Under the pieces are notes generated by a model that was given only the letters and a program-made list of their open reading frames with translations, searched no databases and was not told where the DNA came from. A DNA stretch of 64,000 nt, from the NCBI GenBank assembly GCA_040758355.1, contig JBFLWF010000006.1, forward strand, positions 1 through 64,000, in the 5' to 3' direction. This stretch comes from Nitrospirota bacterium (GTDB lineage: Bacteria; Nitrospirota; Thermodesulfovibrionia; Thermodesulfovibrionales; Dissulfurispiraceae). Shown here piece by piece: positions 5,456 through 63,524 of the stretch. The translations under genes and the position numbers were made by a program. Positions within the stretch are counted from its first letter, which is position 1; every line of letters begins with the position of its first letter.

Positions 5456-6337
5456 TCATAGTTTAAGCAGCCTCTCTATCTTAATCGAACCCTTAGAAAC
5501 TTTTCCAATTCCGAAGAGTTTCCCTTCAGGGTCTTTAAGCCTGATAAATGGTGAAATGGTGACTGTGTGAATGGGCGAATCCGACGTATAAGTAATCGGG
5601 TTCCCGTTTTTGGCCTTCTTCAAATTGTCGCCTTCCAATATTATCTCCGGCAGGTGCTTTAATGCAGAGTCTATGGGATATAATGATGCGGTCTTATGAG
5701 GCAGTTCGCTTATCTTTGCGGAGTTTTCTATGGAGAACTGTCCTATCCTCGTGCGAACAAGTTCAACCATATGTGCGCCTGCGCCAAGGGCATTGCCGAT
5801 GTCATTGCATAATGAGCGCATATATGTGCCTTTTGAACATGAGACTCTCAATTTCAGGAAGGGGGATTCAAAGCTCAATATCTCTATTGAATCGATAATC
5901 ACCTTTCGGGGCTTCCTTTCAATCTCGATGCCCTTTCTGGCTAACTTGTAAAGGGGCTCCCCGGAAACCTTGATTGCCGAATACATGGGAGGTACCTGTT
6001 CGATCTCGCCTATGAATCTCTGGATTATCTCTTTTATTTCTTCAATTTGAAATTTGAAATTTGAAATTTGAAATTTTTTGATTACTTTGCCTTCGGCGTC
6101 ATATGTATCGGTGCTTTCACCCAGCTTTGCGGTCATAATGTACTCCTTGTCGATGTTAGAAAGAAGGGATGAAATCTTTGTAGCCTCATTCAGGCAGATA
6201 AGAAGAACCCCTGTAGCAATTGGGTCAAGTGTTCCTGCATGACCGGCCTTTCTGACCTTAAAGAGTTTTTTTGCAGAGGTAACAGCATCGTGTGAAGTAA
6301 TGCCGTAATCCTTGTTGAGGTTTATAATGATGTTCAT
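5456..6337 (-). CDS. truB: tRNA pseudouridine(55) synthase
   Basis: GHAGTLDP, QVPPMYSAIK, CSKGTYMRSL motifs. Confidence 0.96.
   Translation of the reverse strand: MNIIINLNKDYGITSHDAVTSAKKLFKVRKAGHAGTLDPIATGVLLICLNEATKISSLLSNIDKEYIMTAKLGESTDTYDAEGKVIKKFQISNFKFQIEEIKEIIQRFIGEIEQVPPMYSAIKVSGEPLYKLARKGIEIERKPRKVIIDSIEILSFESPFLKLRVSCSKGTYMRSLCNDIGNALGAGAHMVELVRTRIGQFSIENSAKISELPHKTASLYPIDSALKHLPEIILEGDNLKKAKNGNPITYTSDSPIHTVTISPFIRLKDPEGKLFGIGKVSKGSIKIERLLKL
6044..6076. repeat. (AATTTGA)n heptamer repeat, in frame inside truB
   Basis: aatttga x4 + aattt; encodes KFQISNFKFQI. Confidence 0.85.
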
Positions 6338-30261: not shown

Positions 30262-31406
30262 TGTGTTTTCAGTCTTTTTATCAAGATATCTTTAATTTCG
30301 GCTGGTTTTATGTCTTCAAGGCATCTGCTTATTTTACTTCCATTGCATCCGTCTTTTCCACAGGGTATACAATCCCAATCCCTTTGGATAACAGTATGCA
30401 TTCCGAATGTTTGTATTCCATTCCTGTTGGAGTAGGAGTTTTCAAGATTTGAGATTTGAAATTTGAGATTTGAAATTTTATTGTCCCACGGCCCCCAGTT
30501 GAATGCACCGCTTGGGCCGAACAGGGCAACAACAGGCGTTTCAACTGCCGCGGCAATATGCATGGGTGCAGAGTCGACGCCGAAGAATAAATCGGAAATT
30601 TCCGATAGTGCGCCGAGCTGCTTTATTGTTGTTTTTCCGCAGAGGTCTATTAACCGTAAATCGGGACTGTCCCCGACTAAAGATAGAATTCTCCTCGCCT
30701 TTTCCATTTCTCGCCTGTCAGGGGATGATGTAAATATTACTGTATTTCCACTATCAAGCAACCATCTTGTTATTTCAGCCATATGCTCATCATTCCAGCA
30801 CTTAAAGAGCCATCTTGAAGTTGGGTGAATATGTACAATGCCTGCATTTTTATCCACGCTGTTTTCTTTAAGGATGTTTTTTGCAAATGCCTTGTCCTCT
30901 TCAGGAATATAGAAATCCACGGATAGGTCTTCTGTATTTATTCCAAATCCTTTCACAACATCGAGGTTTTGGAATACCATGTGTCTGTTCCCGTCAGGCT
31001 CCGACAGATGCGTATAGATTGACTGTTTCCCCAAAAAGCCCTTTTTAGATTTCCAGCCAAGTCTATATTTTGCGCCTGATGTAAATGATAATATTGCAGC
31101 CCTATCTCCGCCGGTGAGGTCGACTGTCATATCAAAACCATTTACTCTGATATTTTTGAGAAAGGCCATTTCTTTTGCATATCGCCTTATAGGCGAGAGT
31201 CTTTTTATGCTTCTGTCCATGACGAGTATTTCATCTATCAGCGGGTTCCCCTTCAGGACATCCTCTGTGCCGGAATTTACAAGGGCTGTTATGTGTGCAT
31301 CGGGAAACGTCTCCTTTAATGCCCTGAATACAGGAACAGCAAGAAGCACATCGCCGATATGTCTGAGTTTTATAACAAGTATTTTTTTTATGCCGGCGAA
31401 ATTCAT
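30258..31406 (-). CDS. LPS heptosyltransferase III-like (GT9, RfaQ/WaaQ family)
   Basis: KLRHIGDVLL, HPTSRWLFKCW, VDSAPMHIAAA. Confidence 0.9.
   Translation of the reverse strand: MNFAGIKKILVIKLRHIGDVLLAVPVFRALKETFPDAHITALVNSGTEDVLKGNPLIDEILVMDRSIKRLSPIRRYAKEMAFLKNIRVNGFDMTVDLTGGDRAAILSFTSGAKYRLGWKSKKGFLGKQSIYTHLSEPDGNRHMVFQNLDVVKGFGINTEDLSVDFYIPEEDKAFAKNILKENSVDKNAGIVHIHPTSRWLFKCWNDEHMAEITRWLLDSGNTVIFTSSPDRREMEKARRILSLVGDSPDLRLIDLCGKTTIKQLGALSEISDLFFGVDSAPMHIAAAVETPVVALFGPSGAFNWGPWDNKISNLKFQISNLENSYSNRNGIQTFGMHTVIQRDWDCIPCGKDGCNGSKISRCLEDIKPAEIKDILIKRLKTQ
30445..30478. repeat. Heptamer repeat (A[G/A]ATTTG)n inside the GT9 gene
   Basis: Encodes KISNLKFQISNL. Confidence 0.8.
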
Positions 31407-41648: not shown

Positions 41649-43051
41649 TGATGACCTTGATTAACCCGGGCATACTCATTGTTGATGACGAAGATATTGT
41701 AAGGAAGAGCTGCGTCAGGATACTTTCGCCTCAGGGCTATAATCTCGAGACTGCAAAGAATGCGAGCGAGGCCGTGAAGAAACTCCAGAACGAGTCATTT
41801 GATCTCGTGCTCGCAGACCTTGTTATGCCCGATGTAACAGGCATAGACCTTTTGAAAAAAATTAAAGAGGATTGGCCTGAAACAGAGGTGATAATAATTA
41901 CAGGGTATGGAACAGTAAAAACCGCAGTGGATGCCCTCAAATACGGTGTATACGACTTTATAGAGAAGCCCTTCACTCCAGAGGCGCTTTTAAATTCTGT
42001 TGAGCGATGCCTCGAAAAGAAAAAGCTCGAACTCGAAAATATAAGGCTCAGGCAGGAGATCAATGCCCTGTACAGTTTAGACAATATCATAGGCACATCA
42101 AAGGAGATGCAAAAGGTATTTAAGCTCATAGCCACTGTCGCGTCTACAGGCAGCACTGTATTGATAACAGGCGAGAGCGGCACAGGAAAGGAGCTTGTTG
42201 CACGGGCCATACATTACAACAGTGCAAGGAGGGAGCAGCCCTTTATGGTGGTTGACTGCGGCACAATACCCGAAAACCTCATGGAATCCGAATTGTTCGG
42301 ACATACGAAAGGCTCATTCACAGGTGCAATTGCAACAGAAAAAGGAGTTCTCGAGGCAGCCAACGGAGGGACGGTATTTCTTGACGAGATAAGCAATCTT
42401 CCGCTGTCAATGCAGGTGAAGCTTCTGAGGGTATTGCAGGAAAAGGAGTTCAGGCCTGTTGGCAGCAAAAAGACAGTGAAGATCGACATAAGGTTTATCG
42501 CAGCAACTAACAGGGATCTTTCAGAGATGGTTAAAGAAGGGAAATTCAGGGAAGACTTCTTTTACAGGCTGAATGTATTTCCCATCGATATCCCTCATTT
42601 GAGGGACAGAAAAGAAGACATCCCTGCCCTCGCTTACCATTTCCTCCACAAATACAGCAAGGAAGTCGGAAGGGATGTCCCGCACATTTCAGCAGAGGCC
42701 ATGCGCCAGCTCATCGCCAATGACTGGCCTGGCAACGTAAGGGAGCTTGAAAATGTAATCCACAGGGCAGTAATAGTTTGCGAAGGCAGGACTCTCAAGC
42801 CAGAGCATATAATGATACCTCTGAATCGGGAGGAAGAAATAGAAACTCCAAAAACGCTAAAAGAACTGAAATTAAAGAAAAAGGACTTAAGGACAAGGTC
42901 TATAGAGGATATAGAGAAGAGCTTTCTCATTGCCGCGCTTAAGCGTAATGACTGGAATATCACAAAGGCTGCTGCAGAGGTGGGCATGCAGAGGCCGAAT
43001 TTCCATGCGCTGTTAAAGAAATACAATATCTCAAAGGGGAAGGCTGATTAA
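41648..43051 (+). CDS. Sigma54-dependent response regulator (REC-AAA+-Fis HTH, NtrC family)
   Basis: REC, GESGTGKE, ESELFGHTKGSFTGA, FLDEI, WPGNVRELEN, C-terminal HTH. Confidence 0.95.
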   Translation: MMTLINPGILIVDDEDIVRKSCVRILSPQGYNLETAKNASEAVKKLQNESFDLVLADLVMPDVTGIDLLKKIKEDWPETEVIIITGYGTVKTAVDALKYGVYDFIEKPFTPEALLNSVERCLEKKKLELENIRLRQEINALYSLDNIIGTSKEMQKVFKLIATVASTGSTVLITGESGTGKELVARAIHYNSARREQPFMVVDCGTIPENLMESELFGHTKGSFTGAIATEKGVLEAANGGTVFLDEISNLPLSMQVKLLRVLQEKEFRPVGSKKTVKIDIRFIAATNRDLSEMVKEGKFREDFFYRLNVFPIDIPHLRDRKEDIPALAYHFLHKYSKEVGRDVPHISAEAMRQLIANDWPGNVRELENVIHRAVIVCEGRTLKPEHIMIPLNREEEIETPKTLKELKLKKKDLRTRSIEDIEKSFLIAALKRNDWNITKAAAEVGMQRPNFHALLKKYNISKGKAD

Positions 43052-43069
43052 ACCATAATCCGTAAACAT

Positions 43070-43122
43070 GGATAGCAGGTATGCGCTCAAAGCCGTCCCT
43101 CTTTTCGGCGCACCTGCTATCC
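43070..43122 (-). repeat. Structured hairpin element, copy 3
   Basis: Minus strand GGATAGCAGGTGCGCC-GA-AAAG-agggacgg-CTTT-GA-GCGCATACCTGCTATCC. Confidence 0.65.
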
Positions 43123-43134
43123 TGCATTAGTGAG

Positions 43135-43323
43135 ATGACAAAAATCGATTGTTTTAAATGCAAACACTTCTATATCACATGGGACAAAGGCTTTCCTTAT
43201 GGATGCAAGGCAATGGGATTCAAGACAAAAAACATGCCCTCTGATGTCGTCTATCAATCTTCGGGAATGGAGTGTTTGAAATACGAGGAAAAGGACAAAA
43301 ATCCTAAAAATATCATCAGATAA
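43135..43323 (+). CDS. Small 4-Cys conserved hypothetical protein (family often loosely annotated as uracil-DNA glycosylase)
   Basis: CFKCKHFYITWD...PYGCKAMGFK...SG.EC pattern; too short to be a UDG. Confidence 0.7.
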   Translation: MTKIDCFKCKHFYITWDKGFPYGCKAMGFKTKNMPSDVVYQSSGMECLKYEEKDKNPKNIIR

Positions 43324-43402
43324 ACCGCCTAAGCGAGGGGATACAAAACTTCTTCCTGCTTGTGTCGCCAATGAGGACAGCACAAAACTTAGCAGGTGGC
43401 AG
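43317..43402 (-). pseudogene. Fragment of the DNA-methylase gene joined to the GCGGTTTATCTG end repeat
   Basis: Translates KFCAVLIGDTSRKKFCIP, matching KHCAVLIGDTRRNKFYIP of ORF 46359-46685. Confidence 0.75.
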
Positions 43403-43449
43403 ATTATAAATCTGTGGTATAATTTAATAAAAATGAAGGGTGGATTCCA

Positions 43450-43740
43450 CTGCCAATCATAATTGATGATATAATATGGCTGGATACCATAGTTGAGAAG
43501 ATTGCATGGAAACACGGCGTACTTCCACATGAGGTTGAAGAAGTGTTATCCGGCAATTTCAGGATGTTTAAAAGAGAAAGCGGAAAGGTTGAAGGAGAGG
43601 ATCTTTATAATGCCCTCGGCATAACCGAAGGCGGACGATATCTCTCAATATTTTTTATAAGGAAACTAAATAACAAGGCCCTGATCATAACTGCAAGAGA
43701 TATGAACAAAAGGGAGAAAAGAAGATATGAAAAAAAGTAA
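43450..43740 (+). CDS. BrnT-family toxin (DUF497); probable CTG start
   Basis: IIW...VEKIAWKHGVLPHEVEEV...G.TEGGRYL...IITARDM..RE.RRY; the frame is open back to TAA at 43420. Confidence 0.8.
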   Translation: MPIIIDDIIWLDTIVEKIAWKHGVLPHEVEEVLSGNFRMFKRESGKVEGEDLYNALGITEGGRYLSIFFIRKLNNKALIITARDMNKREKRRYEKK

Positions 43741-43966
43741 ATACAGAGAGATGACAATAGCAGAGGCAAGCGACTATTTCAACGAGCATGATATATTTGA
43801 GTTTGAAGATGTAAAGGAAGTCTCTGATGTCAAATTCAAGTTGCATAAGAAAAAATATATTGGGGTTGACATAGACCTTTTTAAGAAAATTAAAAGTAAA
43901 GCAAAAAAACTCCATAAAAGCGAAGACCTGCTTATAAAAGAATGGCTTATTGAAAAAGTCGGGTAA
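43727..43966 (+). CDS. Cognate antitoxin (BrnA/CopG-like)
   Basis: EASDYFNEHD N-terminus, RHH-like C-terminus, overlaps the toxin stop. Confidence 0.72.
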   Translation: MKKSKYREMTIAEASDYFNEHDIFEFEDVKEVSDVKFKLHKKKYIGVDIDLFKKIKSKAKKLHKSEDLLIKEWLIEKVG

Positions 43967-43979
43967 GACTTTTTCAATA
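43948..43979. terminator. 13-bp perfect hairpin at the end of the antitoxin gene, between convergent TA operons
   Basis: TATTGAAAAAGTC-gggtaa-GACTTTTTCAATA. Confidence 0.55.
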
Positions 43980-44039
43980 CCTTAAAAAATCCTTCCCGAT
44001 TTGTCTTTTGCAGTTTTGTTCTTTCGCCCCTTCCATGCT

Positions 44040-44080
44040 TTTTTGAAACACAAAAATATGCTCATTAAAAGGAGGGGAAA
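44040..44080 (-). pseudogene. Short degenerate fragment of the DNA-methylase C-terminus
   Basis: Reads ...LLLM/EHIFVFQK, matching FLLIMHEHIFVFYK of 46359-46685. Confidence 0.55.
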
Positions 44081-44090
44081 AGCATTAGGA

Positions 44091-44444
44091 TTAGTAAAAC
44101 TCTTGTAAAAATCTCAGTTGATTATCAATTTCTCCATCTTTGGTAACAGCAAGCAATTTGAGAGTTAGCCTTATTAGCTCTGCAATTTTTATTTCAGGAG
44201 ATATGATAATTCCTTTGTGGCGTTTGCCTTCTTCGAGCCATGTCCTATGCAGTTTTGTGAAATCGCCAATATTAAAAGTGAGTATGGCTCTGCCCTGAGA
44301 GGCTGTAAATACAAGTTGTTCTAAATCATTTTTGCCAAGCATGCCCGCATCTCTCGCAGACAAGACATCATAATTGTATTGCTTCAATATTAAGGTGAGG
44401 TCAACAGGGATCATTTCATCGAGATAAAGCTTAATAGCAGCCAT
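44091..44444 (-). CDS. DUF5615-family PIN-like toxin
   Basis: LYLDEM, D..QL, RAILTFNIGDF, H.GII. Confidence 0.85.
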   Translation of the reverse strand: MAAIKLYLDEMIPVDLTLILKQYNYDVLSARDAGMLGKNDLEQLVFTASQGRAILTFNIGDFTKLHRTWLEEGKRHKGIIISPEIKIAELIRLTLKLLAVTKDGEIDNQLRFLQEFY

Positions 44445-44842
44445 CAGTCATATTTTTCAGGAAGGGTTTCCCATGTATATGTCTTTTCTTTTTCATCGTC
44501 CGATAGTTTTTCAAATTCTTCTTCCGTTATAAGCCGGTCAATCCCGTATTCGCCTACAACCAATCGCATATTAGATCTTTTCATAATCGCTCTGAGTGTA
44601 TTTTCCTGAATTTCCTGTTCAATCTCATTCTTATGATCAAAGTAATAGCTGATGGCGTCATGGATCTGCGCAAATGTAAGATGAGGGTATCCCATAAGAA
44701 TATCTTCCGCAGAGTTTCCGCTTTTCACCATAGAAGCGATTAAGCGCACTGTAATCCTTGTGCCGGATATAACAGGCGAACCGCCGCAGATTTCCGGATT
44801 CTTGATAATGTAAGGATGTTCGGTCTTTAATTCTGTAGGCAT
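44444..44842 (-). CDS. DUF433-family antitoxin with C-terminal extension
   Basis: PEICGGSPVISGTRITV...YPHLT.AQIHDAISYY; AGGAGG RBS. Confidence 0.88.
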   Translation of the reverse strand: MPTELKTEHPYIIKNPEICGGSPVISGTRITVRLIASMVKSGNSAEDILMGYPHLTFAQIHDAISYYFDHKNEIEQEIQENTLRAIMKRSNMRLVVGEYGIDRLITEEEFEKLSDDEKEKTYTWETLPEKYD

Positions 44843-44900
44843 TGCGGACTTCCTCCTAAGCAAATAATATCAAAATCGCTCTGAAAGATGCAATTTATAT

Positions 44901-45062
44901 TCACAGATAAACCGCCCTGCCGACTTCTCTGGCAATAAGATTGTCGAATTTATAGTTCTTAAGCCACTGAGATTCCCGTTTCAGATTTTTGAATGCATCC
45001 GCCGCATCTGTGCCTTCGGCGATGCCGATGACAACGGCATCTTCAGTTGAATGGAGTTCAGA
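44901..45062 (-). pseudogene. 53-codon 3' gene fragment ending AVYL* (repeat unit)
   Basis: SELHSTEDAVVIGIAEGTDAADAFKNLKRESQWLKNYKFDNLIAREVGRAVYL*, no start codon; begins right after the hicA stop. Confidence 0.7.
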
Positions 45063-45302
45063 TTACTTTTTGAGAAATTTTTGAAATTCCTCTGGAGACA
45101 ATTCAATATCGCGAAGGATTTTTCTTAGAAGCCCTCGACCAATGGTCTTCCCTTTATGAACGGGGACTGTTGTTTTCCTTCCATCAGGGTGGGTATATCT
45201 GAAGTGACTGCCTTTGGACTTTCTCGTATTCTTGAAGCCAAGCCTTTCAAGAATCCTTATAATTTCTTTGGAAGGCAGTATTGGAAGTCCGCCTTCAGTC
45301 AA
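45063..45302 (-). CDS. hicA: HicA-family toxin
   Basis: LERLGF...KGSH...HPDGRKTTVPVH...GLLRKIL. Confidence 0.9.
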   Translation of the reverse strand: MTEGGLPILPSKEIIRILERLGFKNTRKSKGSHFRYTHPDGRKTTVPVHKGKTIGRGLLRKILRDIELSPEEFQKFLKK

Positions 45303-45532
45303 ACTGCAACCTCAAGGCTTTTAATGCCTATTACTTCAGGATATTTTAAACTGATTTTTTTCTTTCTTTCCTTAAGTTCTTCAATGCACATGGCAATCAC
45401 ATCTTTTATATTTTCTATTGCCTCTTCAAAGGTCTCTCCCTGTGCATAGCAGCCCTGAAGTGCAGGGCATTCAGCAACATAGACGCCATCTTCATCTTGC
45501 TCGATAATTACCTGAAGATTATATTTCTTCAA
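45299..45532 (-). CDS. hicB: HicB-family antitoxin (TTG start)
   Basis: IEQDEDGVYVAECPALQGCYAQGETFEEAIENIKDVI; GGGGAGG RBS. Confidence 0.88.
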   Translation of the reverse strand: MKKYNLQVIIEQDEDGVYVAECPALQGCYAQGETFEEAIENIKDVIAMCIEELKERKKKISLKYPEVIGIKSLEVAV

Positions 45533-45582
45533 TTTTAACACCTCCCCTGTTAAGTCTATGAACATTATACACCTAAAGCCGT

Positions 45583-45693
45583 TTACAGATAAACCGCCCC
45601 GCCTGCTTTTCTGGCAGCAAGGTTGTCGAACCGTTTCAGATTTCTGAACGCATCCTTTGCATTTCTGCCTTCGGCAATGCCGATAATTACGAC
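45583..45693 (-). pseudogene. Second diverged copy of the AVYL* gene-end fragment (27-nt in-frame deletion)
   Basis: VVIIGIAEGRNAKDAFRNLKRFDNLAARKAGGAVYL*. Confidence 0.7.
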
Positions 45694-46238
45694 TTTTTGA
45701 GATGAATAATAGGCTCAAGTTTAGGAAGCAGGAAATATTTTCCAGCCAGTTTGTAGACTTTGCGAATATCGGCCTTCTTTGAAAGCTCTTTAATATCAAT
45801 AATGTCCTGACTGCTTAACGGCAGGAGTTTCAGTAAGATAAGGTATTCAGGGGTAGCGACTTTAATGCTCTTTCCCAGAACATCGGCAACAACCGCATTT
45901 TTTATCGCATCAGCCGCCAAATCAAATCCGCCCGTGCCTATAATATCAACCTGAATCTGACCTGACATGAAAGAAAATTTCTCCTGTATCGTCATTCGCG
46001 GCGTTGCTTTATGGACAGATACCTTTTTCTGCAGTCTTGTCTGGATAAGAGAGATCAGGTCTACCCAGTTTATCTTTTTTGAGATTATAACAACCAGATC
46101 AACATCCCTCGTGGTGCGCGGACGCACCCATGCCGAAAGCGCAAGCCCGCCAATAAGCGCATAATCTTCGACAATGCCTTCATTCTTCAGCTCATCGAAA
46201 AAGGAAATGGTTTTTATAAAGGCTTCGATTATAGACAT
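45687..46238 (-). CDS. Nucleotidyltransferase-superfamily protein (AbiEii/DUF6036-like)
   Basis: YALIGGLAL...PRTTRDVDL, VDI, ATPEYLILLKL...QD..DI. Confidence 0.82.
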   Translation of the reverse strand: MSIIEAFIKTISFFDELKNEGIVEDYALIGGLALSAWVRPRTTRDVDLVVIISKKINWVDLISLIQTRLQKKVSVHKATPRMTIQEKFSFMSGQIQVDIIGTGGFDLAADAIKNAVVADVLGKSIKVATPEYLILLKLLPLSSQDIIDIKELSKKADIRKVYKLAGKYFLLPKLEPIIHLKKS

Positions 46239-46351
46239 TACTTTTTCTTTCCTGCTTTATGAACCGACTTCTTGATTATTAAGGAAAGTTCGAGCAGTTC
46301 GAGGGCGATTTCTATGTTTTTGCCGTTCGGTTTTAAAGGCTTCTTTTTCAT
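46238..46351 (-). CDS. 37-aa basic peptide translationally coupled to the nucleotidyltransferase
   Basis: MKKKPLKPNGKNIEIALELLELSLIIKKSVHKAGKKK*; TAATG overlap with the next gene. Confidence 0.55.
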   Translation of the reverse strand: MKKKPLKPNGKNIEIALELLELSLIIKKSVHKAGKKK

Positions 46352-46358
46352 GCTTGAA

Positions 46359-46685
46359 TTATACACCTAAAGCCGTTTGCAGATAAACCGCAGGGCCTGC
46401 CTCTGTAGGTTTTCGTGGCTTGTAAAAAACAAAAATGTGCTCGTGCATTATGAGGAGAAAGTTGTACTCCTTTGATTTTTTGACCCAAAAACCTGTTGCC
46501 CTGCAATTGTGCTGAACCTTGATGATGTCTTCTTTGAGGACGAATCCAGCCTTTAAAAAGCGCTCCATGACGTTATACGCAAGGGGAATATAGAATTTGT
46601 TCCGCCTCGTATCGCCGATAAGAACAGCGCAATGTTTGCCGGGCTTTAAAACCCTGAAACATTTAGGATAGATTATTTTTGACAA
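46359..46685 (-). pseudogene. C-terminal fragment of an N4/N6 DNA methyltransferase, reading into the AVYL repeat
   Basis: FRVLKPGKHCAVLIGD...GFVLKEDIIKVQHN...HEHIFVF; lacks the SAM-binding and (D/N/S)PPY motifs. Confidence 0.75.
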
Positions 46686-46712
46686 TTCTAATAAAATACA
46701 TCAGGTGAACTC

Positions 46713-47165
46713 ATGAAGAAGATATTAACCCTCGCTGATCAGATCAACAAACGAATTTGGTGGCATTCTCCACCATCAGACAAAAACGCTTACAAAAAAA
46801 GAGGTATGTTCCTGTCTTCGTCATATAAGGAATGCGAATTTTATGGCCGCCCTCTTGATGAACCAATTAGGGTAAAAGTGTCTAAACCGTTAGTAGACAC
46901 TGAACGAAATGTAATTAGATTTTTCTTTGGTAATGATTCTCCACAGATGCTTACCTTAAATGCCTTAATGAATGGCACCTCAAGAAGCCCGGTAAAGGCA
47001 AGATTTAAATTAGATGCGGATTTATTTGAAGCAGCTAAGAAAAACAAATATGATGCCATTGCAATAATCCCAGAAAAGGGTCTTGAAAAAATAAAAAATC
47101 ACAAACTTCCAAGAAGTGTAGAGTTGAACGTAATTGATTTCGAGAATGGAATTGATAAAGTATGA
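46713..47165 (+). CDS. Hypothetical protein, possible ADP-ribosyltransferase fold
   Basis: 150-aa ORF with ATGA overlap to the MTase; WWH...GMFLS....EFYG...KPL...YDAI...E.NV pattern. Confidence 0.6.
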   Translation: MKKILTLADQINKRIWWHSPPSDKNAYKKRGMFLSSSYKECEFYGRPLDEPIRVKVSKPLVDTERNVIRFFFGNDSPQMLTLNALMNGTSRSPVKARFKLDADLFEAAKKNKYDAIAIIPEKGLEKIKNHKLPRSVELNVIDFENGIDKV

Positions 47166-48103
47166 AAGGCACTACACATAAAATTAAAAGCGAAAAAAAG
47201 TGGTCTATAATATACAAGTACACAGAAAGCCCAATTGAATTTTACATTTCAGAAGAAACAGTCACTTATGGCGACAACGGCAAGAAAAAGCCTTTCTCCA
47301 TTTACTACGACAACCCTGCACATTCAGTGAGACTTCTCAAAGGCGATTGCATAGAGATATTGAATCAGGCCAGGGAAAACAGTGTTGATATGATTTTTGC
47401 CGACCCGCCTTATTTTCTTTCTAATGGAGGCATCACTTGCCATGCGGGAAAGATGGTATCTGTTAATAAAGGCAAGTGGGATAAATCCAAAGGTGTGGCA
47501 GAAAATCATAAATTTACTCTCGAATGGCTCAAGGCTTGTCAGCGCGTCCTAAAGCCAAATGGAACAATATGGGTTTCGGGAACAACACATATCATTTACT
47601 CGGTCGGCTTTGCAATGCAGGAGCTTGGATATAAAATCCTTAATGACATTATCTGGTACAAGCGCAACGCTCCACCAAATCTCTCATGCAGATATTTCAC
47701 ACATTCAACAGAGATAGTTTTATGGGCTGCCAAAAATGAAAAAAGCAAACATTACTTTGATTATCATCTTATGAAGAAAATGAATCAAGGTAAGCAGATG
47801 CGTAATGTGTGGGAAATCTCAGCACCGCCAGCAGAGGAAAAGAAGTTCGGAAAACATCCAACTCAAAAACCTGTGGAGCTTTTGAAAAGAATTATCCTTG
47901 CATCTACAAAAGGGGACGATTTAGTGCTTGATCCCTTCTGTGGCAGTTCAACAACCGGCGTTGCAGCGGTCTTATTAAATCGGAAGTATGTAGGGATTGA
48001 TTTGGAGGATGAATATCTTGCTGTCTCTGTAAAGCGATTGAAAGAAGCAATTGTGAAAAAAGAACATAAGCTATTTGAGCATAAAGAGGCAGTAACACGA
48101 TGA
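47162..48103 (+). CDS. N6-adenine DNA methyltransferase, beta class (DpnA/M2.MboI-like)
   Basis: ADPPYFLSNGG...SVNKGKWD, HPTQKP, LDPFCGSSTTG. Confidence 0.92.
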   Translation: MKGTTHKIKSEKKWSIIYKYTESPIEFYISEETVTYGDNGKKKPFSIYYDNPAHSVRLLKGDCIEILNQARENSVDMIFADPPYFLSNGGITCHAGKMVSVNKGKWDKSKGVAENHKFTLEWLKACQRVLKPNGTIWVSGTTHIIYSVGFAMQELGYKILNDIIWYKRNAPPNLSCRYFTHSTEIVLWAAKNEKSKHYFDYHLMKKMNQGKQMRNVWEISAPPAEEKKFGKHPTQKPVELLKRIILASTKGDDLVLDPFCGSSTTGVAAVLLNRKYVGIDLEDEYLAVSVKRLKEAIVKKEHKLFEHKEAVTR

Positions 48104-49026
48104 AATATTCCCCAATATTTAAAAATAAGATAGGTTGTAAGAATGAAAGCGAAGTATTTGCTTATCTGATCAATAATCTTAATGATTCCATCAGATACTG
48201 GGACTATTTTGTGAACTGGAAAAAGGTTCTCGGTAACACGCGAGAGTTGGAGGTAGATTTGAATATTATGAACTACCTGATCGGCAAGGAAGATATTGAG
48301 AAAGAATTTGGTTGTCTTTTAAAAAAGCATCCTCAGATTTTAAGATTAGTTCCTGTGCTTCTTGCATGTAGAGAACATAAGTTTAAAATCCTCACAGATC
48401 TTTCTGAGGGGAATCTCAAGTATGATGATTTTTCATTTGAGGAAAAGAGAAACCTTTCCGATGCTGAAATTTCAAAAGTTGTCCGTTTTGCGCAAAAAAG
48501 TGGCTTGTTAAAAATATTCAAAGACAAAACCGTTAAGAATGTTGTTGATTACACAATTGGGATTGAGGTTGGGCTTGACAGTAATGGGCGTAAAAACCGA
48601 GGCGGTACTGCTATGGAGAAAGTTATCGAATCTTATATTAAAGTAATATGCAAAATGCATGGCTTCAGATATATGAAACAGGCGACTTCTGAAAAGGTGT
48701 CTTCAGAATGGGGACTGAAACTTAGTGTTGACAAATCAAGTAGACGATTCGATTTTGCAGTATACAATGGCAAGAAGCTTTATCTCATAGAAGCCAATTA
48801 CTATGGCGGTGGAGGCTCTAAACTTAAATCTACAGCAGGCGAATATAAAGCTCTATATGATTTTGTCTCTAAGGACGGTCATAAATTTATCTGGATTACC
48901 GATGGCTTGGGATGGAAGACTACCAGTAGGCCTTTAGAGGAAACTTTTAATCATATCGAGTATCTTTTGAATTTAAAAATGCTTACTGAAGGTATCTTAG
49001 ATGGGATTGTTGTAAATAACCTCTAA
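48100..49026 (+). CDS. Type II restriction endonuclease, DpnII/MboI family (GATC)
   Basis: DYFVNWKKV, GIEVGLDSNGRKNRGG, RFDF...IEANYYGGGGSKL, FIWITDG.GW. Confidence 0.92.
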   Translation: MKYSPIFKNKIGCKNESEVFAYLINNLNDSIRYWDYFVNWKKVLGNTRELEVDLNIMNYLIGKEDIEKEFGCLLKKHPQILRLVPVLLACREHKFKILTDLSEGNLKYDDFSFEEKRNLSDAEISKVVRFAQKSGLLKIFKDKTVKNVVDYTIGIEVGLDSNGRKNRGGTAMEKVIESYIKVICKMHGFRYMKQATSEKVSSEWGLKLSVDKSSRRFDFAVYNGKKLYLIEANYYGGGGSKLKSTAGEYKALYDFVSKDGHKFIWITDGLGWKTTSRPLEETFNHIEYLLNLKMLTEGILDGIVVNNL

Positions 49027-49064
49027 AGGGACAACAAAAATTGTACTCTGAATTTTTTAAGTCT

Positions 49065-49316
49065 CTATACTTCTATAGGCCATATAGGAGTAAAAGAATT
49101 GTTCGTCTCTTCAACTGATATTATGTTTTTGACCTCAAATTTACGCGTCCCCTTTTTCATTATGTCATAACAATAAAAGAATTCACTCCCTCTCTCAAAT
49201 CTGTAACTGTATGGTTCGGCTTCTCGAGTTTCAATAGAACCATCTTTCTCCTTAGCTGTTAATAGAATGGTATGAAGATTTTTACCAGCAGATGAAATAA
49301 TATCTTTAATTGTCAT
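49065..49316 (-). CDS. Stand-alone WYL-like domain protein
   Basis: REAEPYSYR...FYCYD...RKF....I.SV...F.P.WPIE pattern; GGAGG RBS. Confidence 0.6.
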   Translation of the reverse strand: MTIKDIISSAGKNLHTILLTAKEKDGSIETREAEPYSYRFERGSEFFYCYDIMKKGTRKFEVKNIISVEETNNSFTPIWPIEV

Positions 49317-49404
49317 TGCATACCCTCCACTGAAAAAATATTCTTAAAATAATAATCATTCTTTTTTGTCTACCCCCTACCAAAATTCAGGGTGCGACCT
49401 ATCT

Positions 49405-51318
49405 TCAGACATCTGGTAATATTCTTTTGCAGAGATCTTCTAATAGAACACATTTCTTGCCCTTCTCCCAGAGATGCTGAAGAGTAGCCACTATAACCAT
49501 TTCGTTTTTCTTTTTATTGGATATATCATTATAGCCGTAAAGCGCTACCATTTCAGCTTGTGCTTTATCCCAGACGTCATGCCCGATCTCATCTCGAACT
49601 GAATCCCTTATATTAGTACCCCACATTACCACATTTGTACCAAAATATCCGCCAGCCGACAACGGATCAACATCAGATGCTGAACATAAGTTGAGAATAC
49701 ATCTATTATCACGGCTATTGTCCTTCTTAACACAGTCCTTTGCATTCTTATCAGAATCACCATCAAAAATTACAAAATAGGGAATAGAGAGTTCCTTAGC
49801 TATAGCAAGTGGTCTGCTCATACTAGTCTTTCCACCGCATATAATGAAATGTCCGCCGCGCCGCTTAAACTCCATCATTCGCCCCAATAGTTCAATGTAT
49901 GTCGATATAAAAGCAACGTCCTCAATACCCTCTACTAATACTGCTAATCCGCTGAAATAAAGTTCGTTTAAAGAAGGTTGCATTATCTGTTGGATCATTG
50001 CCATGCAACTAGACGGCGGTGCGGGACTTTCACCTAAAGCAGCGGCAATGCAATTACTTAGCTTTTCTAATGTCAGATGAGATGCGGTGGAACAATCATC
50101 ATCGTCTTTCCATCGAACTAATCTTATATTTTCTACTCCTTTCCCAGATACAAAATATGGGCTGTGGGTAGTCACAACAACTTGAGCATTTTCCATGTCT
50201 TCAAGAAGTTTTGCCAAGTGCCGGGCCTGCGGAGGATGTTGATAGACTTCAGGCTCCTCAAACCCCAGAAGGAGCATAGGAACTTTTTCCTGTTTACTCT
50301 TTGCCAACATCTGTAATACTGAAACAATAAAAGCACGCTGTAACCCATGCCCCATTCTTCGTATATCACCAAGAAACTGCTTTTCGCCCACCTCTGCCTT
50401 AGCTAACGGCGGATCGACTTTAAATTTGCTTGGATCGAAATTCCAAGATAGTTTTACTCTGGCATCAGGATGAGTCCATTCCTGTAAAAGGCTTTGGAGC
50501 GAAGCCGAAACATCCTCTAATACATGATCTTGCTCACGAAGTATTGCTTCGTACTTTGTTCGTACTTCTTCCTTTAGGGGAATGAGATAGTCTGCAAAAT
50601 TGACACGCGACCTTATAGTTCGCTCAAGCAATTTGCCGAATGCTGTATTCTTAGATTCTTCTTGCTCGCTGGCTGCATCTTTTACAGCAGGAATGTACAC
50701 CCATTGCAGAAAGGGATCTAGTTTCCCTGATCCTTGGAATCCGAAAAATTGATCTTCGCTATCAATAAGTTCACACAATTCTGGGTGCTGGTCTTCATAA
50801 GCTCGGAGTGCTTCAAGCTTATCGTCCTTAGATTTCGGATTTGGAAGGTCTGGATACCTTTCGCGATATCCGTTATAAAGTTGCGTTAACAGGGCGGCAC
50901 TTTGACCTGCTTTATATGCCTCAAAAAATGGCCTAAATTCACCCATTCCCAGTCTTGCACCGAATTGCCTAACTTCTGCGGTTCTTTTTTCTTCATTCCA
51001 GACAGCTTTAGCAGTAAATATAAGTTTTTCGTTTCGTACATAGTGTTGCAAACTCTCTTTAGCTTCGGGTGTCAATTCGCCGAAAGTTGCCCTGATTTCT
51101 ATCGGGTCAGTGGTATTTCGATTGTGGAAATCCTCTTCTATTAATATCTGTACATCGGTTGTTACATCGGTCTTATTTCGGAATAAAACGTTTAAAGCCA
51201 TAAGGACTGTTGATTTGCCAGCGCCGTTTGGGCCTACAAGAGAGGTATACTTGCCAAAGTGGATGGTTGAGTCTTTAAATCCCCTATAGTTCTTAATCTC
51301 TAAAGTTTCAAGCTGCAT
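49405..51318 (-). CDS. OLD-family ATP-dependent nuclease (ABC ATPase + TOPRIM)
   Basis: IKNYRG, Walker A GPNGAGKST, GHGLQR, EEPEVYQHP, TTHSP, TOPRIM VEG.ED and DGD. Confidence 0.9.
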   Translation of the reverse strand: MQLETLEIKNYRGFKDSTIHFGKYTSLVGPNGAGKSTVLMALNVLFRNKTDVTTDVQILIEEDFHNRNTTDPIEIRATFGELTPEAKESLQHYVRNEKLIFTAKAVWNEEKRTAEVRQFGARLGMGEFRPFFEAYKAGQSAALLTQLYNGYRERYPDLPNPKSKDDKLEALRAYEDQHPELCELIDSEDQFFGFQGSGKLDPFLQWVYIPAVKDAASEQEESKNTAFGKLLERTIRSRVNFADYLIPLKEEVRTKYEAILREQDHVLEDVSASLQSLLQEWTHPDARVKLSWNFDPSKFKVDPPLAKAEVGEKQFLGDIRRMGHGLQRAFIVSVLQMLAKSKQEKVPMLLLGFEEPEVYQHPPQARHLAKLLEDMENAQVVVTTHSPYFVSGKGVENIRLVRWKDDDDCSTASHLTLEKLSNCIAAALGESPAPPSSCMAMIQQIMQPSLNELYFSGLAVLVEGIEDVAFISTYIELLGRMMEFKRRGGHFIICGGKTSMSRPLAIAKELSIPYFVIFDGDSDKNAKDCVKKDNSRDNRCILNLCSASDVDPLSAGGYFGTNVVMWGTNIRDSVRDEIGHDVWDKAQAEMVALYGYNDISNKKKNEMVIVATLQHLWEKGKKCVLLEDLCKRILPDV

Positions 51319-51488
51319 TCTTCCTCCTAATACGAGCTTTACTTAATAAGATATAGAGGCAACTTGTATATTATCCATGGGGCGCAGGCTTATTTTTCGA
51401 TCACTTTTTTCTGTCAGCAATCCATTTTTTGACAGTCCTGTCTTATTTCTGCCGCATTATAAATGAGAAAATGGAATTTTTTCAATAT

Positions 51489-51519
51489 AAAAACAGGACA
51501 TTTCTATTTTGGCTTGACA
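51489..51519 (-). mobile_element. Isolated IS terminal inverted repeat (IS481/IS1202-like)
   Basis: Reverse complement TGTCAAGCCAAAATAGAAATGTCCTGTTTTT: TGT terminus plus AAATGTCC motif. No transposase and no second end seen. Confidence 0.5.
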
Positions 51520-51696
51520 TCACAAAAACAAGGCGGAGATTTATCTTTAGGCGAGGCATATTCTTTTGATAGACGCCTTCAAGTGCTACATCCAGATAAC
51601 AAGCACATCCGCCCCAAAATCTGTCAGCAGTTGCAGATTCTGAGGGATAAAGGCATTCTGGAATTCAAAGGACAAGGGAAATATCAATTCAAATAA
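51520..51696 (+). pseudogene. DpnI-type (Dam-replacing) C-terminal winged-helix domain remnant
   Basis: L.EAYSF...L..LHPDNKHIRPKICQQLQILRDKGILEF.G.GKY; truncated at the IS end. Confidence 0.8.
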
Positions 51697-51811
51697 CTTA
51701 GCCCTCGCCCCGCCCCAAAATCCGCTCTATGAGTCGTTGACTCCACTCTATGAGCCGTTGGCTCAACGAGCCATAGGCGAGTCAGAGACCGGCAGCTTTA
51801 AATATAATTTT

Positions 51812-51834
51812 TTGTTATAATTGTGTTATAACAC
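51812..51834 (+). promoter_or_regulatory. Extended -10 (TGTTATAAT) plus perfect palindrome GTGTTATAACAC, likely TA autoregulatory operator
   Basis: Directly upstream of the GGAGG RBS of the AbrB-like antitoxin. Confidence 0.5.
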
Positions 51835-51849
51835 TGCACGGAGGTTTCG

Positions 51850-52098
51850 ATGCACAGGAAATTATGTTCCATAGGCAACAGTCAGGGAATATCAATTCCG
51901 CTGGATATGCTCGAAAGACTCAATCTGTCTGTAGGCTCTGAAGTGGATGTCAAGCTTGACGAAGCTGAATCAAGAATTATCATAGAGCCGGTAATGAAAA
52001 AAAAATATCCCAGGGGCATTGACAGGGAATTTGTCTCTCAGGTTAATGATTTTATCGGAAAGTACAAACCTGCGCTAAAAGAACTCGCAAAGAAGTGA
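51850..52098 (+). CDS. AbrB/MazE-family antitoxin
   Basis: RKL.SIGNSQGISIP...L.LSVGSEV; C-terminal KYKPALKELAK. Confidence 0.87.
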   Translation: MHRKLCSIGNSQGISIPLDMLERLNLSVGSEVDVKLDEAESRIIIEPVMKKKYPRGIDREFVSQVNDFIGKYKPALKELAKK

Positions 52099-52484
52099 AA
52101 TATCTTTTAGTAGAGCAGGTTCTTTTTATTCACAGCAGGCTTATAGATGAGACAGGCGGCTCGCACGGAGTCAGGGATTTGGGGCTTCTTCAGGCTGCGG
52201 TATCGAGGCCGAAGGCGACTTTCGGGGGCAAAGACCTCTATCTTGATATTTTTCACAAGGCAGCGTCCCTCATGGAATCGCTTATAAAAAACCATCCTTT
52301 TATTGACGGCAACAAAAGAACCGCAATAACATCTGTCGGTATTTTTTTGCAAAGAAACGGCTGGTTATTGGAAACTTCACAAAAGGAGCTTGAGAGATTT
52401 GTGATTTCCGTGGCTGCAGGCAATGCCTCTTTTGATGATATTGTTAAGTGGTTTAAGCAGTATTCCTCAAAAGCAAAAATATAG
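52095..52484 (+). CDS. doc: Death-on-curing (Doc/Fic) family toxin
   Basis: GVRD.GLL.AA..RP, HPFIDGNKRTA; GTGA overlap. Confidence 0.9.
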   Translation: MKYLLVEQVLFIHSRLIDETGGSHGVRDLGLLQAAVSRPKATFGGKDLYLDIFHKAASLMESLIKNHPFIDGNKRTAITSVGIFLQRNGWLLETSQKELERFVISVAAGNASFDDIVKWFKQYSSKAKI

Positions 52485-52625
52485 ACACATCCGCCCCCCA
52501 AAATCCGCTCGAAGCGAGTCTCGCGAAGAGTCGCACCGACCAGCAGCTTCAAATCCTCCGAGACAAAGGCATACTGTCCACGACTCGCAGAGGAGTTTAA
52601 ATGGGAAGGGGAGGTACGGGATTTT

Positions 52626-52919
52626 TTAAGGATGGGGTGTAATGGCTATAATAGTTATCTCTTTGTTTCCGGGACCATAATGCCAAAATATTCTATACGC
52701 GGCAGGGGTGGACTGCTCTGCATATGCCTCAAATACTTTTTCTCCTTTTGGACCTTTTAACGAAGTAAATTCATGGGTTTGCAGTCCGGGATGTCTTGGG
52801 TTTTGAGATAAAAATTGAATTGTCTTTTTTACTGCGTTATATCGTTTGGCAAGACCTTTGTCTGTCTTGAGCCGGTTTAACTGTTCTTTAGCCTCATCGG
52901 TCAGGAGTATATCGAACAA
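52626..52919 (-). CDS. RelE/ParE-like toxin (TTG start)
   Basis: NPRHPGLQTHE...FEAY......AYRIFWHYGP...ITIIAITPHP. Confidence 0.7.
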   Translation of the reverse strand: MFDILLTDEAKEQLNRLKTDKGLAKRYNAVKKTIQFLSQNPRHPGLQTHEFTSLKGPKGEKVFEAYAEQSTPAAYRIFWHYGPGNKEITIIAITPHP

Positions 52920-52928
52920 GAGAGATTC

Positions 52929-53177
52929 CTATAATTCATTGAGATTGAGTTTTGAAATCCTGCCTTCAGATGCGTCTTTCAGCCCTTTGTGAACGCTTTT
53001 AAGAGCTTCTTTATTTTTATAAAGCCATCTTTCGGGAAGCGGAATAGTTTCCAAAAGGGTTTCTAACCTGTCAAGCTCGTCCATAGCAATAACAGCAGCC
53101 ACTTTGTGCCCTCTTTTATCTGTTAAATACTGCTTAATTTTAATAAGTTCGCTTTCGCTCTTTAAGGTTGCCGGCAT
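52929..53177 (-). CDS. Putative cognate antitoxin
   Basis: E.WLYKNKEAL.SV.KGL.DA..GR C-terminus; 9 nt upstream of the toxin; AGGAGG RBS. Confidence 0.65.
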   Translation of the reverse strand: MPATLKSESELIKIKQYLTDKRGHKVAAVIAMDELDRLETLLETIPLPERWLYKNKEALKSVHKGLKDASEGRISKLNLNEL

Positions 53178-53286
53178 ATATCCTCCTTTGAAGCCTGTTG
53201 CTAAAATAAATTATAACATAATAACAAACACATCCACCCCCAAAATCCGCCGGCAGCGGTTTTTAATATGCCAATGGTCGTGAGAA

Positions 53287-53478
53287 CTACACCTGTGCGG
53301 TTTTTAATTCTCCTGAATGGGGACGTTTTCTGTTCGGACAGTATATCACGGGGCAGGACTCGCAGCTTTCAGCAGAGTCTATCTCAAAGCCGAAGGGGAT
53401 CAATTCTCCGCAGTCGCATTGCCAGCCTTCTGGGGTATGTTTTGATAATGCATTATCACAAAAAGGACATTTAAGCAT
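53287..53478 (-). CDS. Small Cys-rich hypothetical protein (possible zinc ribbon)
   Basis: CPFC, CDCG, CESC...YC in 63 aa. Confidence 0.55.
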   Translation of the reverse strand: MLKCPFCDNALSKHTPEGWQCDCGELIPFGFEIDSAESCESCPVIYCPNRKRPHSGELKTAQV

Positions 53479-53554
53479 ATGTCTAATTTAAGTATAGAAC
53501 CGGGGAAAATATTTTTTTATGACGTGTATCATATGGATGCACACCCCTGTGTAT

Positions 53555-54370
53555 TTATCCCTTCCTTGAATCCTCAAGGTTACGAACAATCTCTGCGCCT
53601 ATGAGGAATATGCAGGATGAATAGAAGACCCACAGGAGGAATATCACAAAGGCCGAGAGGGGTCCGTATATGGTTCCTAATTTCGCAACCTTTACTACAT
53701 AGAGGGTGAAGGTGTGCTTTGCTGCTTCAAGAAGGATTGCTGTAAATAACGCCCCTGATAATGCGCAGCTGAGTCTTATCCTTTTTTTCGGGAGGAAGAT
53801 GTAGAGCGTGGCTGCGGTCAGGAATACCAGTATCAATGGCACGACAAATTTTATTACAAAGCCTGTTATCTTCCCAATCTTTACATCCGGGAAAAATTCC
53901 TGAAGTGTCTTAAGCATCGAGATTGCAGCTGTTGCGCCAAAGGAGGCAAGGATAAAGGCAATTATCAGGGTGATGATGAATAGAGAGAGGACAATGGAGA
54001 TTATAAAATGTCTCTTAGCCTTTGTCTTGAATATCACATTTGTTGCTGTTTCAAGTGATGAAAAAAGCTGGTAGGACAATACGGCATAGAGGATTACTGT
54101 AAACTGCCCTATTCCTTTGTAGGATATTATCTTTTTCAGTTCGTTGGTTATCTCGTGTGTGATCTTTGGAAAGAAACCCACGAGTTTTGCTGAAAAGAAT
54201 CTGAGCAGTTCTTCATTGCCGCCGAGGAAATGTCCGAATATTGTCACGAGGAGGAGGCAGAAGGGGACGATTGCCATCATGGTGAAGTATGATATTGAGC
54301 CTGCAAGCATGAGCCCGCCGTCCCTGAAGAAGTCCACGAAGCTTCTGAGTATTGCCTTTACATATCGCAT
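53555..54370 (-). CDS. YihY/virulence factor BrkB family membrane protein
   Basis: LAGSISYF, multiple TM helices, YGPLSAFVIFLLWVFYS...LIGAE. Confidence 0.9.
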   Translation of the reverse strand: MRYVKAILRSFVDFFRDGGLMLAGSISYFTMMAIVPFCLLLVTIFGHFLGGNEELLRFFSAKLVGFFPKITHEITNELKKIISYKGIGQFTVILYAVLSYQLFSSLETATNVIFKTKAKRHFIISIVLSLFIITLIIAFILASFGATAAISMLKTLQEFFPDVKIGKITGFVIKFVVPLILVFLTAATLYIFLPKKRIRLSCALSGALFTAILLEAAKHTFTLYVVKVAKLGTIYGPLSAFVIFLLWVFYSSCIFLIGAEIVRNLEDSRKG

Positions 54371-63425: not shown

Positions 63426-63521
63426 AAATGAGTATATGGGTAAATGTGTATCTGATGTCAGAGCATTTTTAAAAATCTTTTACACCCATTTACTCATAAA
63501 CCCATTCACTCATTTACTAAT
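63426..63521. repeat. Inverted octamer repeat block (ATGRGTAA-like / TTACTCAT-like)
   Basis: aaatgagtatatgggtaaatgtgta...tacacccatttactcataaacccattcactcattt. Confidence 0.7.
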
Positions 63522-63524
63522 ACA

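Follow-up and report, generated by a model that had tools for sequence, protein, structure and literature searches.

The toxin-antitoxin (TA) array described here, part of a bacterial defence island in a window of 64,000 nucleotides (the whole stretch of DNA that was analysed), probably grows and is reshuffled by homologous or homology-facilitated recombination without a recombinase of its own, and the 12-bp repeat at its junctions would be the last part of a gene end that has been displaced. We read this mechanism from sequence footprints. Three island genes, encoding an AF_1447-family protein, a type II methyltransferase (methylase) and a DpnI-like nuclease, supply the 3' stubs that separate the modules, and ordinary recombination likely uses these stubs as its homology anchors.

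Results

Stubs of AF_1447 and the methyltransferase form the left arm of an island of ~10 kb, which has a DpnII-type system in its centre and stubs of the DpnI-like gene in its right arm:

43081..43323, + strand: small Cys-rich chromosomal ORF, left border; it adjoins brkB in the island-free genomes G003, G024 and G052
43317..43328, - strand: core D, the terminal copy, an AF_1447 stub reading AVYL
43331..43402, - strand: CAVLIGDT stub of the methyltransferase (aa ~205-229), which travels with the BrnTA module
43462..43966, + strand: BrnTA module of a BrnT toxin, whose start is uncertain, and a CopG-type antitoxin (PF04365 above cut-off; PF12441 below cut-off)
about 44041..44080, - strand: fifth stub, a 3' end of the methyltransferase (EHIFVFQK) that lacks the 12-mer
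44091..44842, - strand: DUF433 and DUF5615 module (PF04255, PF18480)
44901..45052, - strand: stub C, last ~49 AF_1447 codons including the stop; core 44904-44915
45063..45532, - strand: HicB-HicA module (PF15919, PF07927)
45564..45707, - strand: stub B, AF_1447 end with a 27-nt internal deletion; core 45586-45597; TATAAT 45564-45569
45687..46351, - strand: nucleotidyltransferase (AbiEii-like, 183 aa; PF08843) and an upstream 37-aa ORF
46358..46679, - strand: stub A, in which a methyltransferase 3' end (aa 195-282) has lost its stop and runs into a short AF_1447 end; core 46380-46391; TATAAT 46358-46363
46713..51318: island centre, with an unknown ORF, a beta-class methyltransferase, a DpnII-family endonuclease, a small ORF and an OLD-like nuclease
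51537..53258, + strand: right arm, four DpnI-like 3' stubs around MazE-Doc and RelB/RelE-like modules
about 51612, 51713, 52496 and 53238: right-arm cores, codons PKIR
53555..54370, - strand: brkB-family chromosomal gene, right border

The stop codon of the left-border ORF (TAA, 43321-43323) falls inside core copy D. The 37-aa ORF before the nucleotidyltransferase starts 6 nt past TATAAT, and the pair is also present in G004, G016, G022, G175 and G136. PADLOC labels the methyl-directed and DpnII-type systems mREase_II and REase_II/MTase_II. An earlier, sequence-only reading had recognised the left array by its four cores, all of which are present, yet had overlooked the coreless fifth stub. 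A palindrome spanning core B was rejected, as the other copies do not keep it, and for the hairpin inserts of the right-arm stubs a second copy was absent from G000.

That reading had also treated all fragments as remnants of one repeated gene, an origin that is ruled out by the identification of two source genes. The AVYL and IGIAEG pieces derive from an AF_1447-family gene of 78 aa, of which G058, G038 and other genomes have intact copies, and the CAVLIGDT pieces from a separate 282-aa type II methyltransferase gene, intact in G022. The AF_1447 family is PF27350, an assignment precomputed on 15 of the 22 homologues of the intact 78-aa gene, for which the top Atlas matches were at 0.93; the 49-aa AF_1447 stub was assigned no family by the local Pfam copy. 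In G136, G203, G022 and G183, cargo and stubs lie behind a gene that is still intact.

The 12-mer makes up the last four codons (AVYL) of the 78-aa gene. As first reported, CAGATAAACCGC occurs exactly at 43317, 44904, 45586 and 46380 in the whole window, and none of 100 shuffled windows had any exact match. The minus strand of every copy translates to AVYL, and a stop codon comes after those at 44904 (TGA) and 45586 (TAA). One further exact copy in the genome lies on C37, unrelated to the array; an uptake or Chi-like motif spread over the genome is rejected, since its 2.77 Mb hold just five exact copies. The supposed invariance at wobble positions does not extend beyond this genome: across genomes the exact 12-mer is found in 11/19 stubs versus 0/12 intact AF_1447 genes, with GCA, GCT, CTT and CTA as wobble variants outside the exact copies. 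The expectation that the 12-mer outdoes its neighbouring codons holds among the stubs, where the preceding codons are 40-80% conserved. Even copy C is conserved beyond its flanks, and its module likely has a separate -35 box. When the order was scanned, 114 of 201 genomes had a match, many of them single, and single matches were left out of inference; tight clusters occur in this genus and G016 only, among the matches listed (150 listed, 51 more unlisted).

The proposal that the flanking fragments diverged as coding alleles elsewhere and arrived with their modules is supported by several comparisons. Differences between the two CAVLIGDT pieces are mostly synonymous, as had been claimed (10 synonymous and 3 non-synonymous in 16 codons), and dN/dS of stub A against the intact methylase is 0.02 over 82 codons; the same measure is weak for the two IGIAEG pieces (6 synonymous and 11 non-synonymous differences in 34 codons, dN/dS 0.59). 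Wobble positions of the stubs vary as between alleles. Furthermore, over 734 nt the BrnTA module and the stubs on its two sides share 87.5% identity with G071, a genome of another family, versus 76% for serS. The RelBE cassette reaches 87.5% versus 74% for serS (G183) and 84% versus 77% (G168), and the NTase cassette 89.5% to G016 versus 81%, so that cassettes are about 84-89% identical across families or genera where serS is at 74-81%. The stubs are different alleles, resembling same-module stubs in other families more than their own neighbours, and the modules travel with their stubs between relatives.

The stop codon is reached by 32/47 methylase, 10/15 AF_1447 and 32/45 DpnI stubs. At their other end, methylase stubs start at scattered positions from nt 491 to 809 (two further matches lie at the 5' end) and AF_1447 stubs anywhere from nt 12 to 190. 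As such, the stop codon is the common boundary and the other boundary wanders, the reverse of a tandem att array. For DpnI, 30 of 45 starts fall within nt 683-701, a 19-nt window; this clustering is tighter than illegitimate joining alone predicts, though many of these stubs share descent. In G016, a 39-bp perfect repeat of core and promoter surrounds an inserted module, beginning at a 5-nt GC-rich match. Insertions had been expected to start at the edge of the 12-mer: several stubs are indeed trimmed right up to it, whereas the methylase stubs start anywhere.

Across Thermodesulfovibrionales, the layout comes back with its cargo shuffled, and several chromosomal sites are occupied. At least two stubs were found in 26 of 46 genomes, the 46 being a selected set, and a DpnI-motif scan of the phylum matched 15 of 401 genomes, all within the same class. 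Contigs of two other studies carry the same modules in a different order; one joint in these ends at 45598, beside the core edge, and was counted neither way. One sequencing run carries two other island centres. Intact DpnI is present in the loci of 7 genomes and a DpnII-type methylase in those of 10, with an overlap of 0. In the same genome as the array, serS, rluD and an asparaginase-like gene also have TA-like modules with a divergent, displaced gene end behind them; the pattern is therefore not bound to one sequence.

Discussion

How could such an array be assembled? Donor DNA carrying a gene end and cargo would cross over within the resident gene and rejoin at a second stub or at a microhomology, upon which the donor end would complete the gene and the old gene end would be pushed outward. 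From then on, RecA alone could insert, take out or reorder cargo that has a stub on either side, with natural transformation as the probable preceding step. ComEC, DprA and ComM are present in the genome, and ComEC in 5/5 other island-bearing genomes tested; competence genes are found in 10-11 of 14 control genomes too, and their presence is no proof of transformation. The stubs, 40-100 nt long at 75-90% identity, are short for RecA, which in E. coli has a threshold of about 30 bp (PMC2884548).

So why would the last 12 bases outlast the rest of the gene? We infer that they do because the core persists as the -35 region of a cargo promoter in copies A and B and as the stop codon of a neighbour in copy D, to which homogenisation of neighbouring copies by recombination would add. 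TATAAT begins exactly 16 nt after the core in 9/19 stubs with three different spacers, and the core is probably kept as a -35 box; this putative box matches 3/6 consensus bases, and the proposed promoters of modules A and B were absent from the list of a promoter scan.

The 12-mer had originally been interpreted as an att or crossover core. Extended to both arms, this would make the 12-mer and the PKIR motif true attachment cores, at which integrase-less modules were added in tandem by a site-specific recombinase acting in trans, as in CIME accretion, a scenario that we consider unlikely, if worth weighing. It would account for the conservation of the 12-mer over its preceding codons and for stubs cut to its edge, and the narrow window of DpnI starts fits an attB within the gene with a replacement 3' end; moreover, tyrosine recombinases have six matches in the genome, one of them an integron integrase. 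However, the intact AF_1447 genes do not carry the exact 12-mer, MNT-HEPN-like cargo is also found behind an AF_1447 end without a core, and the left-arm junction at 44041-44080 is coreless. Left-arm stubs have the stop end in common and not a crossover start, and the left and right cores are unlike each other, with wobble variation in both. The empty site of island-free G003 does carry a core-like sequence at its border (10 of 12 positions), but this is more likely a deletion scar than an empty att site, because border-gene homologues in other genera (17 among those listed, including two abutting brkB) have no core. In tblastn searches, six recombinases from G000, serine recombinases not being among the queries, had no match in 53 loci, many of which end at contig ends, nor in 11 metagenome loci, and no resolvase-family match was found in G000. 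Neither AF_1447 nor core patterns were found in viral contigs, which hold methylase relatives at 56% identity or less only. A tRNA as integration target was discarded, the window being without one.

Far less credible still is a CALIN-like array, with the stubs as single-stranded, attC-like sites on which the genome's integron integrase would act. The small co-oriented modules with TA cargo would suit it, as would an IntI gene on C3 and an IntI fragment on C6, but that fragment, the only trace on C6, is 38 kb away and neither IntI nor attI stands at the array head. The RYYYAAC...GTTRRRY box pair is absent from 43000-53500, in a scan that found no strong attC in the C3 integron either, and folding z-scores of the stubs are just 0 to -2.0. 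Improbable, to a lesser degree, is local tandem duplication of one gene end and promoter, followed by decay and cargo replacement that left the core as last remnant. Copies A and B do have 43 nt at 91% identity in common, promoter included, and the perfect repeat in G016 points the same way, but neutral decay after duplication would not yield the mostly synonymous change seen between the CAVLIGDT pieces and against the intact gene, and the stubs are closer to same-module stubs of other families than to their neighbours. For the methylase stubs, these comparisons largely refute duplication.

If recombination between displaced gene ends is indeed what builds the array, short pseudogene stubs are working parts that provide common homology for the exchange of defence modules between distant relatives without a mobile element, and a concrete, testable route opens by which defence islands and TA clusters could build up in places without a visible integrase. 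A further caution is that a short invariant gene-end repeat need not be an att site; here most of it may come down to a promoter box and the stop codon of a neighbour. More tentatively, with chances that we put slightly below even, Thermodesulfovibrionia may harbour an integrase-free, two-armed capture island, in which decayed R-M gene ends are portable anchors for trading TA and defence cassettes by transformation and RecA, and whose centre flips between DpnI- and DpnII-type epigenetic states. This would permit cassette trade between families otherwise too divergent to recombine, and would obtain an integron-like function from pseudogene stubs alone. Our literature search, at search level only, found no relevant account of such an arrangement.

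Several known systems resemble parts of this island. Integrons and CALINs hold small, mostly co-oriented cassettes, TA modules among them, and attC hairpins. Co-oriented small cassettes, TA modules and an order shuffled between relatives are shared by our array, but its spacers are coding-derived stubs rather than recognisable attC hairpins, and neither IntI nor attI is adjacent. [quoted passage not shown] Here too, 3' ends of divergent alleles are displaced downstream of a conserved anchor gene and the distal junction varies, with scattered methylase and AF_1447 starts and one 5-nt microhomology. Unlike in those arrays, where a functional immunity gene or toxin tip is displaced (PMC5361080), the displaced ends here are non-functional R-M-type stubs, the TA cargo is unrelated, and two arms surround a swappable centre.

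Accretion of IMEs, ICEs and CIMEs at gene 3' ends likewise places integrase-less tandem modules between copies of a target-gene end, and depends on att sites used site-specifically and on an element that carries an integrase (PMC5704250); in the present island, recombinase matches are absent from the 53 loci, left-arm starts are scattered and cores variable. Finally, as with the DpnI/DpnII cassettes of Streptococcus pneumoniae (PMC2993543), both types occur in the same island and never together, a likeness at the level of enzyme families, with GATC specificity putative. In contrast to the pneumococcal locus, the DpnI and methylase genes here supply the shared flanks as their own stubs, and these stubs also bound the TA arrays; the island is found at several chromosomal sites across an order. 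With this locus, the DpnI/DpnII swap of pneumococci gains a counterpart in a distant phylum.

Results

The left array and its source genes

The core, CAGATAAACCGC, lies exactly where the sequence-only reading had placed it (43317, 44904, 45586 and 46380), and its minus strand indeed reads GCG GTT TAT CTG (AVYL); none of 100 shuffled windows contained any match, and the genome holds one further, unrelated copy. Each copy sits in a stub, the leftover 3' end of a gene, and the copies set apart modules of the BrnT/CopG-type, DUF433/DUF5615 and HicB/HicA, as well as a 37-aa ORF with a nucleotidyltransferase (NTase).

46380, copy A: methylase end with a few codons of AF_1447 fused to it
45586, copy B: AF_1447 end
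44904, copy C: AF_1447 end, the longest stub
43317, copy D: methylase piece joined straight onto the core
~44041-44080, fifth stub: methylase end without core

The fragments had been read as one repeated gene, but they derive from two. AVYL and IGIAEG belong to the 3' portion of a 78-aa AF_1447-family gene (PF27350), intact in G058, G038 and further genomes, while CAVLIGDT is part of a separate 282-aa type II methyltransferase with an intact copy in G022; named relatives are Nitrospirae / Thermodesulfovibrionales. In several genomes of family f11, an intact AF_1447 gene lies between a methylase-like, GATC-containing promoter and a methylase stub, which suggests that AF_1447 was once cargo itself, its end later turning into an anchor.

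The 37-aa ORF (46238-46351, minus strand) is conserved, starts 6 nt past a TATAAT and is always located 5' of the nucleotidyltransferase; it is probably leaderless, and a candidate small antitoxin. In G001 (L005 1679-2213), a gene with short tandem-repeat arms, presumably encoding a four-helix-bundle-like protein, is inserted immediately ahead of the core. Units of 7 and 8 bases also form short tandem arrays in the window, at 6031-6077, 8329-8398, 8538-8579, 8990-9022, 30447-30479 and 63483-63524.

Layout and distribution of the island

The array forms the left arm of a larger island, which continues rightward with a DpnII-type methylase and endonuclease and an OLD-like nuclease. Beyond these comes a second arm, where 3' stubs of a DpnI-like, methyl-directed nuclease lie between MazE-Doc and RelBE-like modules. 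In G022, G203, G183 and G133 the centre instead consists of an intact methylase and an intact DpnI-like gene. Intact DpnI occurs in the fetched loci of 7 genomes and the DpnII-type methylase in those of 10, with no overlap. A genome-wide search of 317 genomes of the order gave DpnI-like matches in 38, and at least two stubs are present in 26 of 46 genomes or records, which were picked for having matches and include profile hits with E up to 0.05, a few of them possibly spurious. Although widespread, the layout is patchy. G003, a complete genome from the same genus, lacks the island and has its border genes (a small Cys-rich ORF and a brkB-family gene) 27 bp apart. The island occupies several chromosomal sites, and its chromosomal neighbours vary between genera and families.

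Upstream of the intact 282-aa methyltransferase, GATC sites cluster at up to 7 per 100 nt, against a genome-wide mean of 2.0 per kb. Their position at the promoter of a methylase adjoining the DpnI-like nuclease suggests a methylation-controlled switch, and a methylase mark that may be compatible with DpnI. In many genomes, DpnI stubs carry differing short hairpin elements at one position, immediately ahead of GCGG, and similar inserts interrupt methylase stubs; a second copy of the window's inserts was not found in its source genome, G000.

Dense GATC clusters, methylase adjoining DpnI-like nuclease: L003 (G022), L043, L044, L046, L063, L068
Hairpin inserts in DpnI stubs: window 51726-51790, 52509-52540; L056, L058, L069, L061

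Imported alleles

That the copies diverged as functional alleles and arrived with their modules is supported. Against the intact methylase of G022, stub A gives a dN/dS of 0.02 over 82 codons; for stub C, comparison with five intact AF_1447 alleles yields 0.10-0.27 where dS is unsaturated. Between stubs A and D, 16 codons contain 10 synonymous and 3 non-synonymous changes. B versus C is weaker, with a dN/dS of 0.59. Furthermore, modules and stubs are closer across taxa than serS: 43333-44065 is 87.5% identical over 734 nt to G071, of another family (serS 76%), the RelBE module 87.5% to G183 (serS 74%) and 84% to G168 (serS 77%), and the NTase module 89.5% to G016 (serS 81%). Modules thus move together with their stubs. 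In public contigs of two studies, from relatives (~93% identity) and not from the strain itself, HicAB and NTase adjoin the left border with DUF433 farther out. A different centre is present in one run that is nearly identical to the window; this run also has a low-depth contig in which 1357 other letters connect the methylase end with that of DpnI.

Discussion

Donor DNA carrying a gene end and cargo would cross over within the resident gene and rejoin at a second stub or at microhomology, pushing the old gene end outward; cargo flanked by stubs on both sides could then be mobile through RecA alone. The same footprint, in which a TA-like module precedes a divergent copy of the gene's final codons, is seen at unrelated genes of G000:

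C1:28251-29976, 3' of serS
C13:36957-37737, 3' of rluD
C32:21651-22418, 3' of an asparaginase-like gene

The displaced serS end is 88% identical over 83 nt, and among 68 family genomes searched only G000 has a second serS-end copy of this kind. ComEC, DprA and ComM are present and would permit transformation. G000 also carries, at C3:122494-129324, an integron integrase accompanied by a series of small ORFs and, at C6:90071-91936, TA modules with an integrase fragment between prfA- and prmC-like genes.

The sequence-only reading likened the core to an att/crossover site. The site-specific alternative would be accretion of the kind described for CIMEs (PMC5704250). The core is indeed better kept than its surroundings in stubs, being exact in 11 of 19 where the codons ahead of it are 40-80% conserved, yet it is absent from all 12 intact AF_1447 genes; these counts, whose rows are not mutually independent, leave out a G001 copy with an indel, a G018 copy that has decayed and three intact genes that are near-duplicates. 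Several stubs are trimmed back to the core edge, and in the right arm 30 of 45 DpnI stubs begin within nt 683-701, but methylase and AF_1447 stubs share a stop codon while starting anywhere. Moreover, stubs show wobble variants of the core, and the same MNT-HEPN-like cargo lies behind the core in G001 but behind a coreless AF_1447 end in L116/L117. The G003 border matches the core at 10 of 12 positions; since the core is missing from all 17 border-gene homologues shown from other genera, two of which adjoin brkB, this is more likely a scar. Tblastn searches with six G000 recombinases found no match across 53 loci, resolvase-family matches are absent from G000, and neither cores nor AF_1447 were found in the viral contigs searched. 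Taken together, these results do not support an att site.

So why does the core persist? TATAAT begins exactly 16 nt past it in 9 of 19 stubs, across three distinct spacer sequences, so that TTATCT stands 17 nt ahead of a perfect -10 box. The core might hypothetically be kept as a -35 box, although TTATCT matches the consensus at only 3 of 6 positions and is missing from the output of a promoter scan. Copy D provides the TAA stop of the convergent border gene. Neither role accounts for copy C. Recombination between neighbouring copies plausibly homogenises the core; G016 carries a perfect 39-bp repeat.

Listings of literature outside subscription journals and supplements gave no published description of the stub arrangement or family. 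For competent species, homology-facilitated joining is reviewed in PMC2884548. The exclusivity of DpnI and the DpnII-type methylase recalls the pneumococcal DpnI/DpnII cassettes (PMC2993543). For the stub array itself, the closest published model is the sequential displacement proposed for V. cholerae T6SS arrays (PMC5361080).
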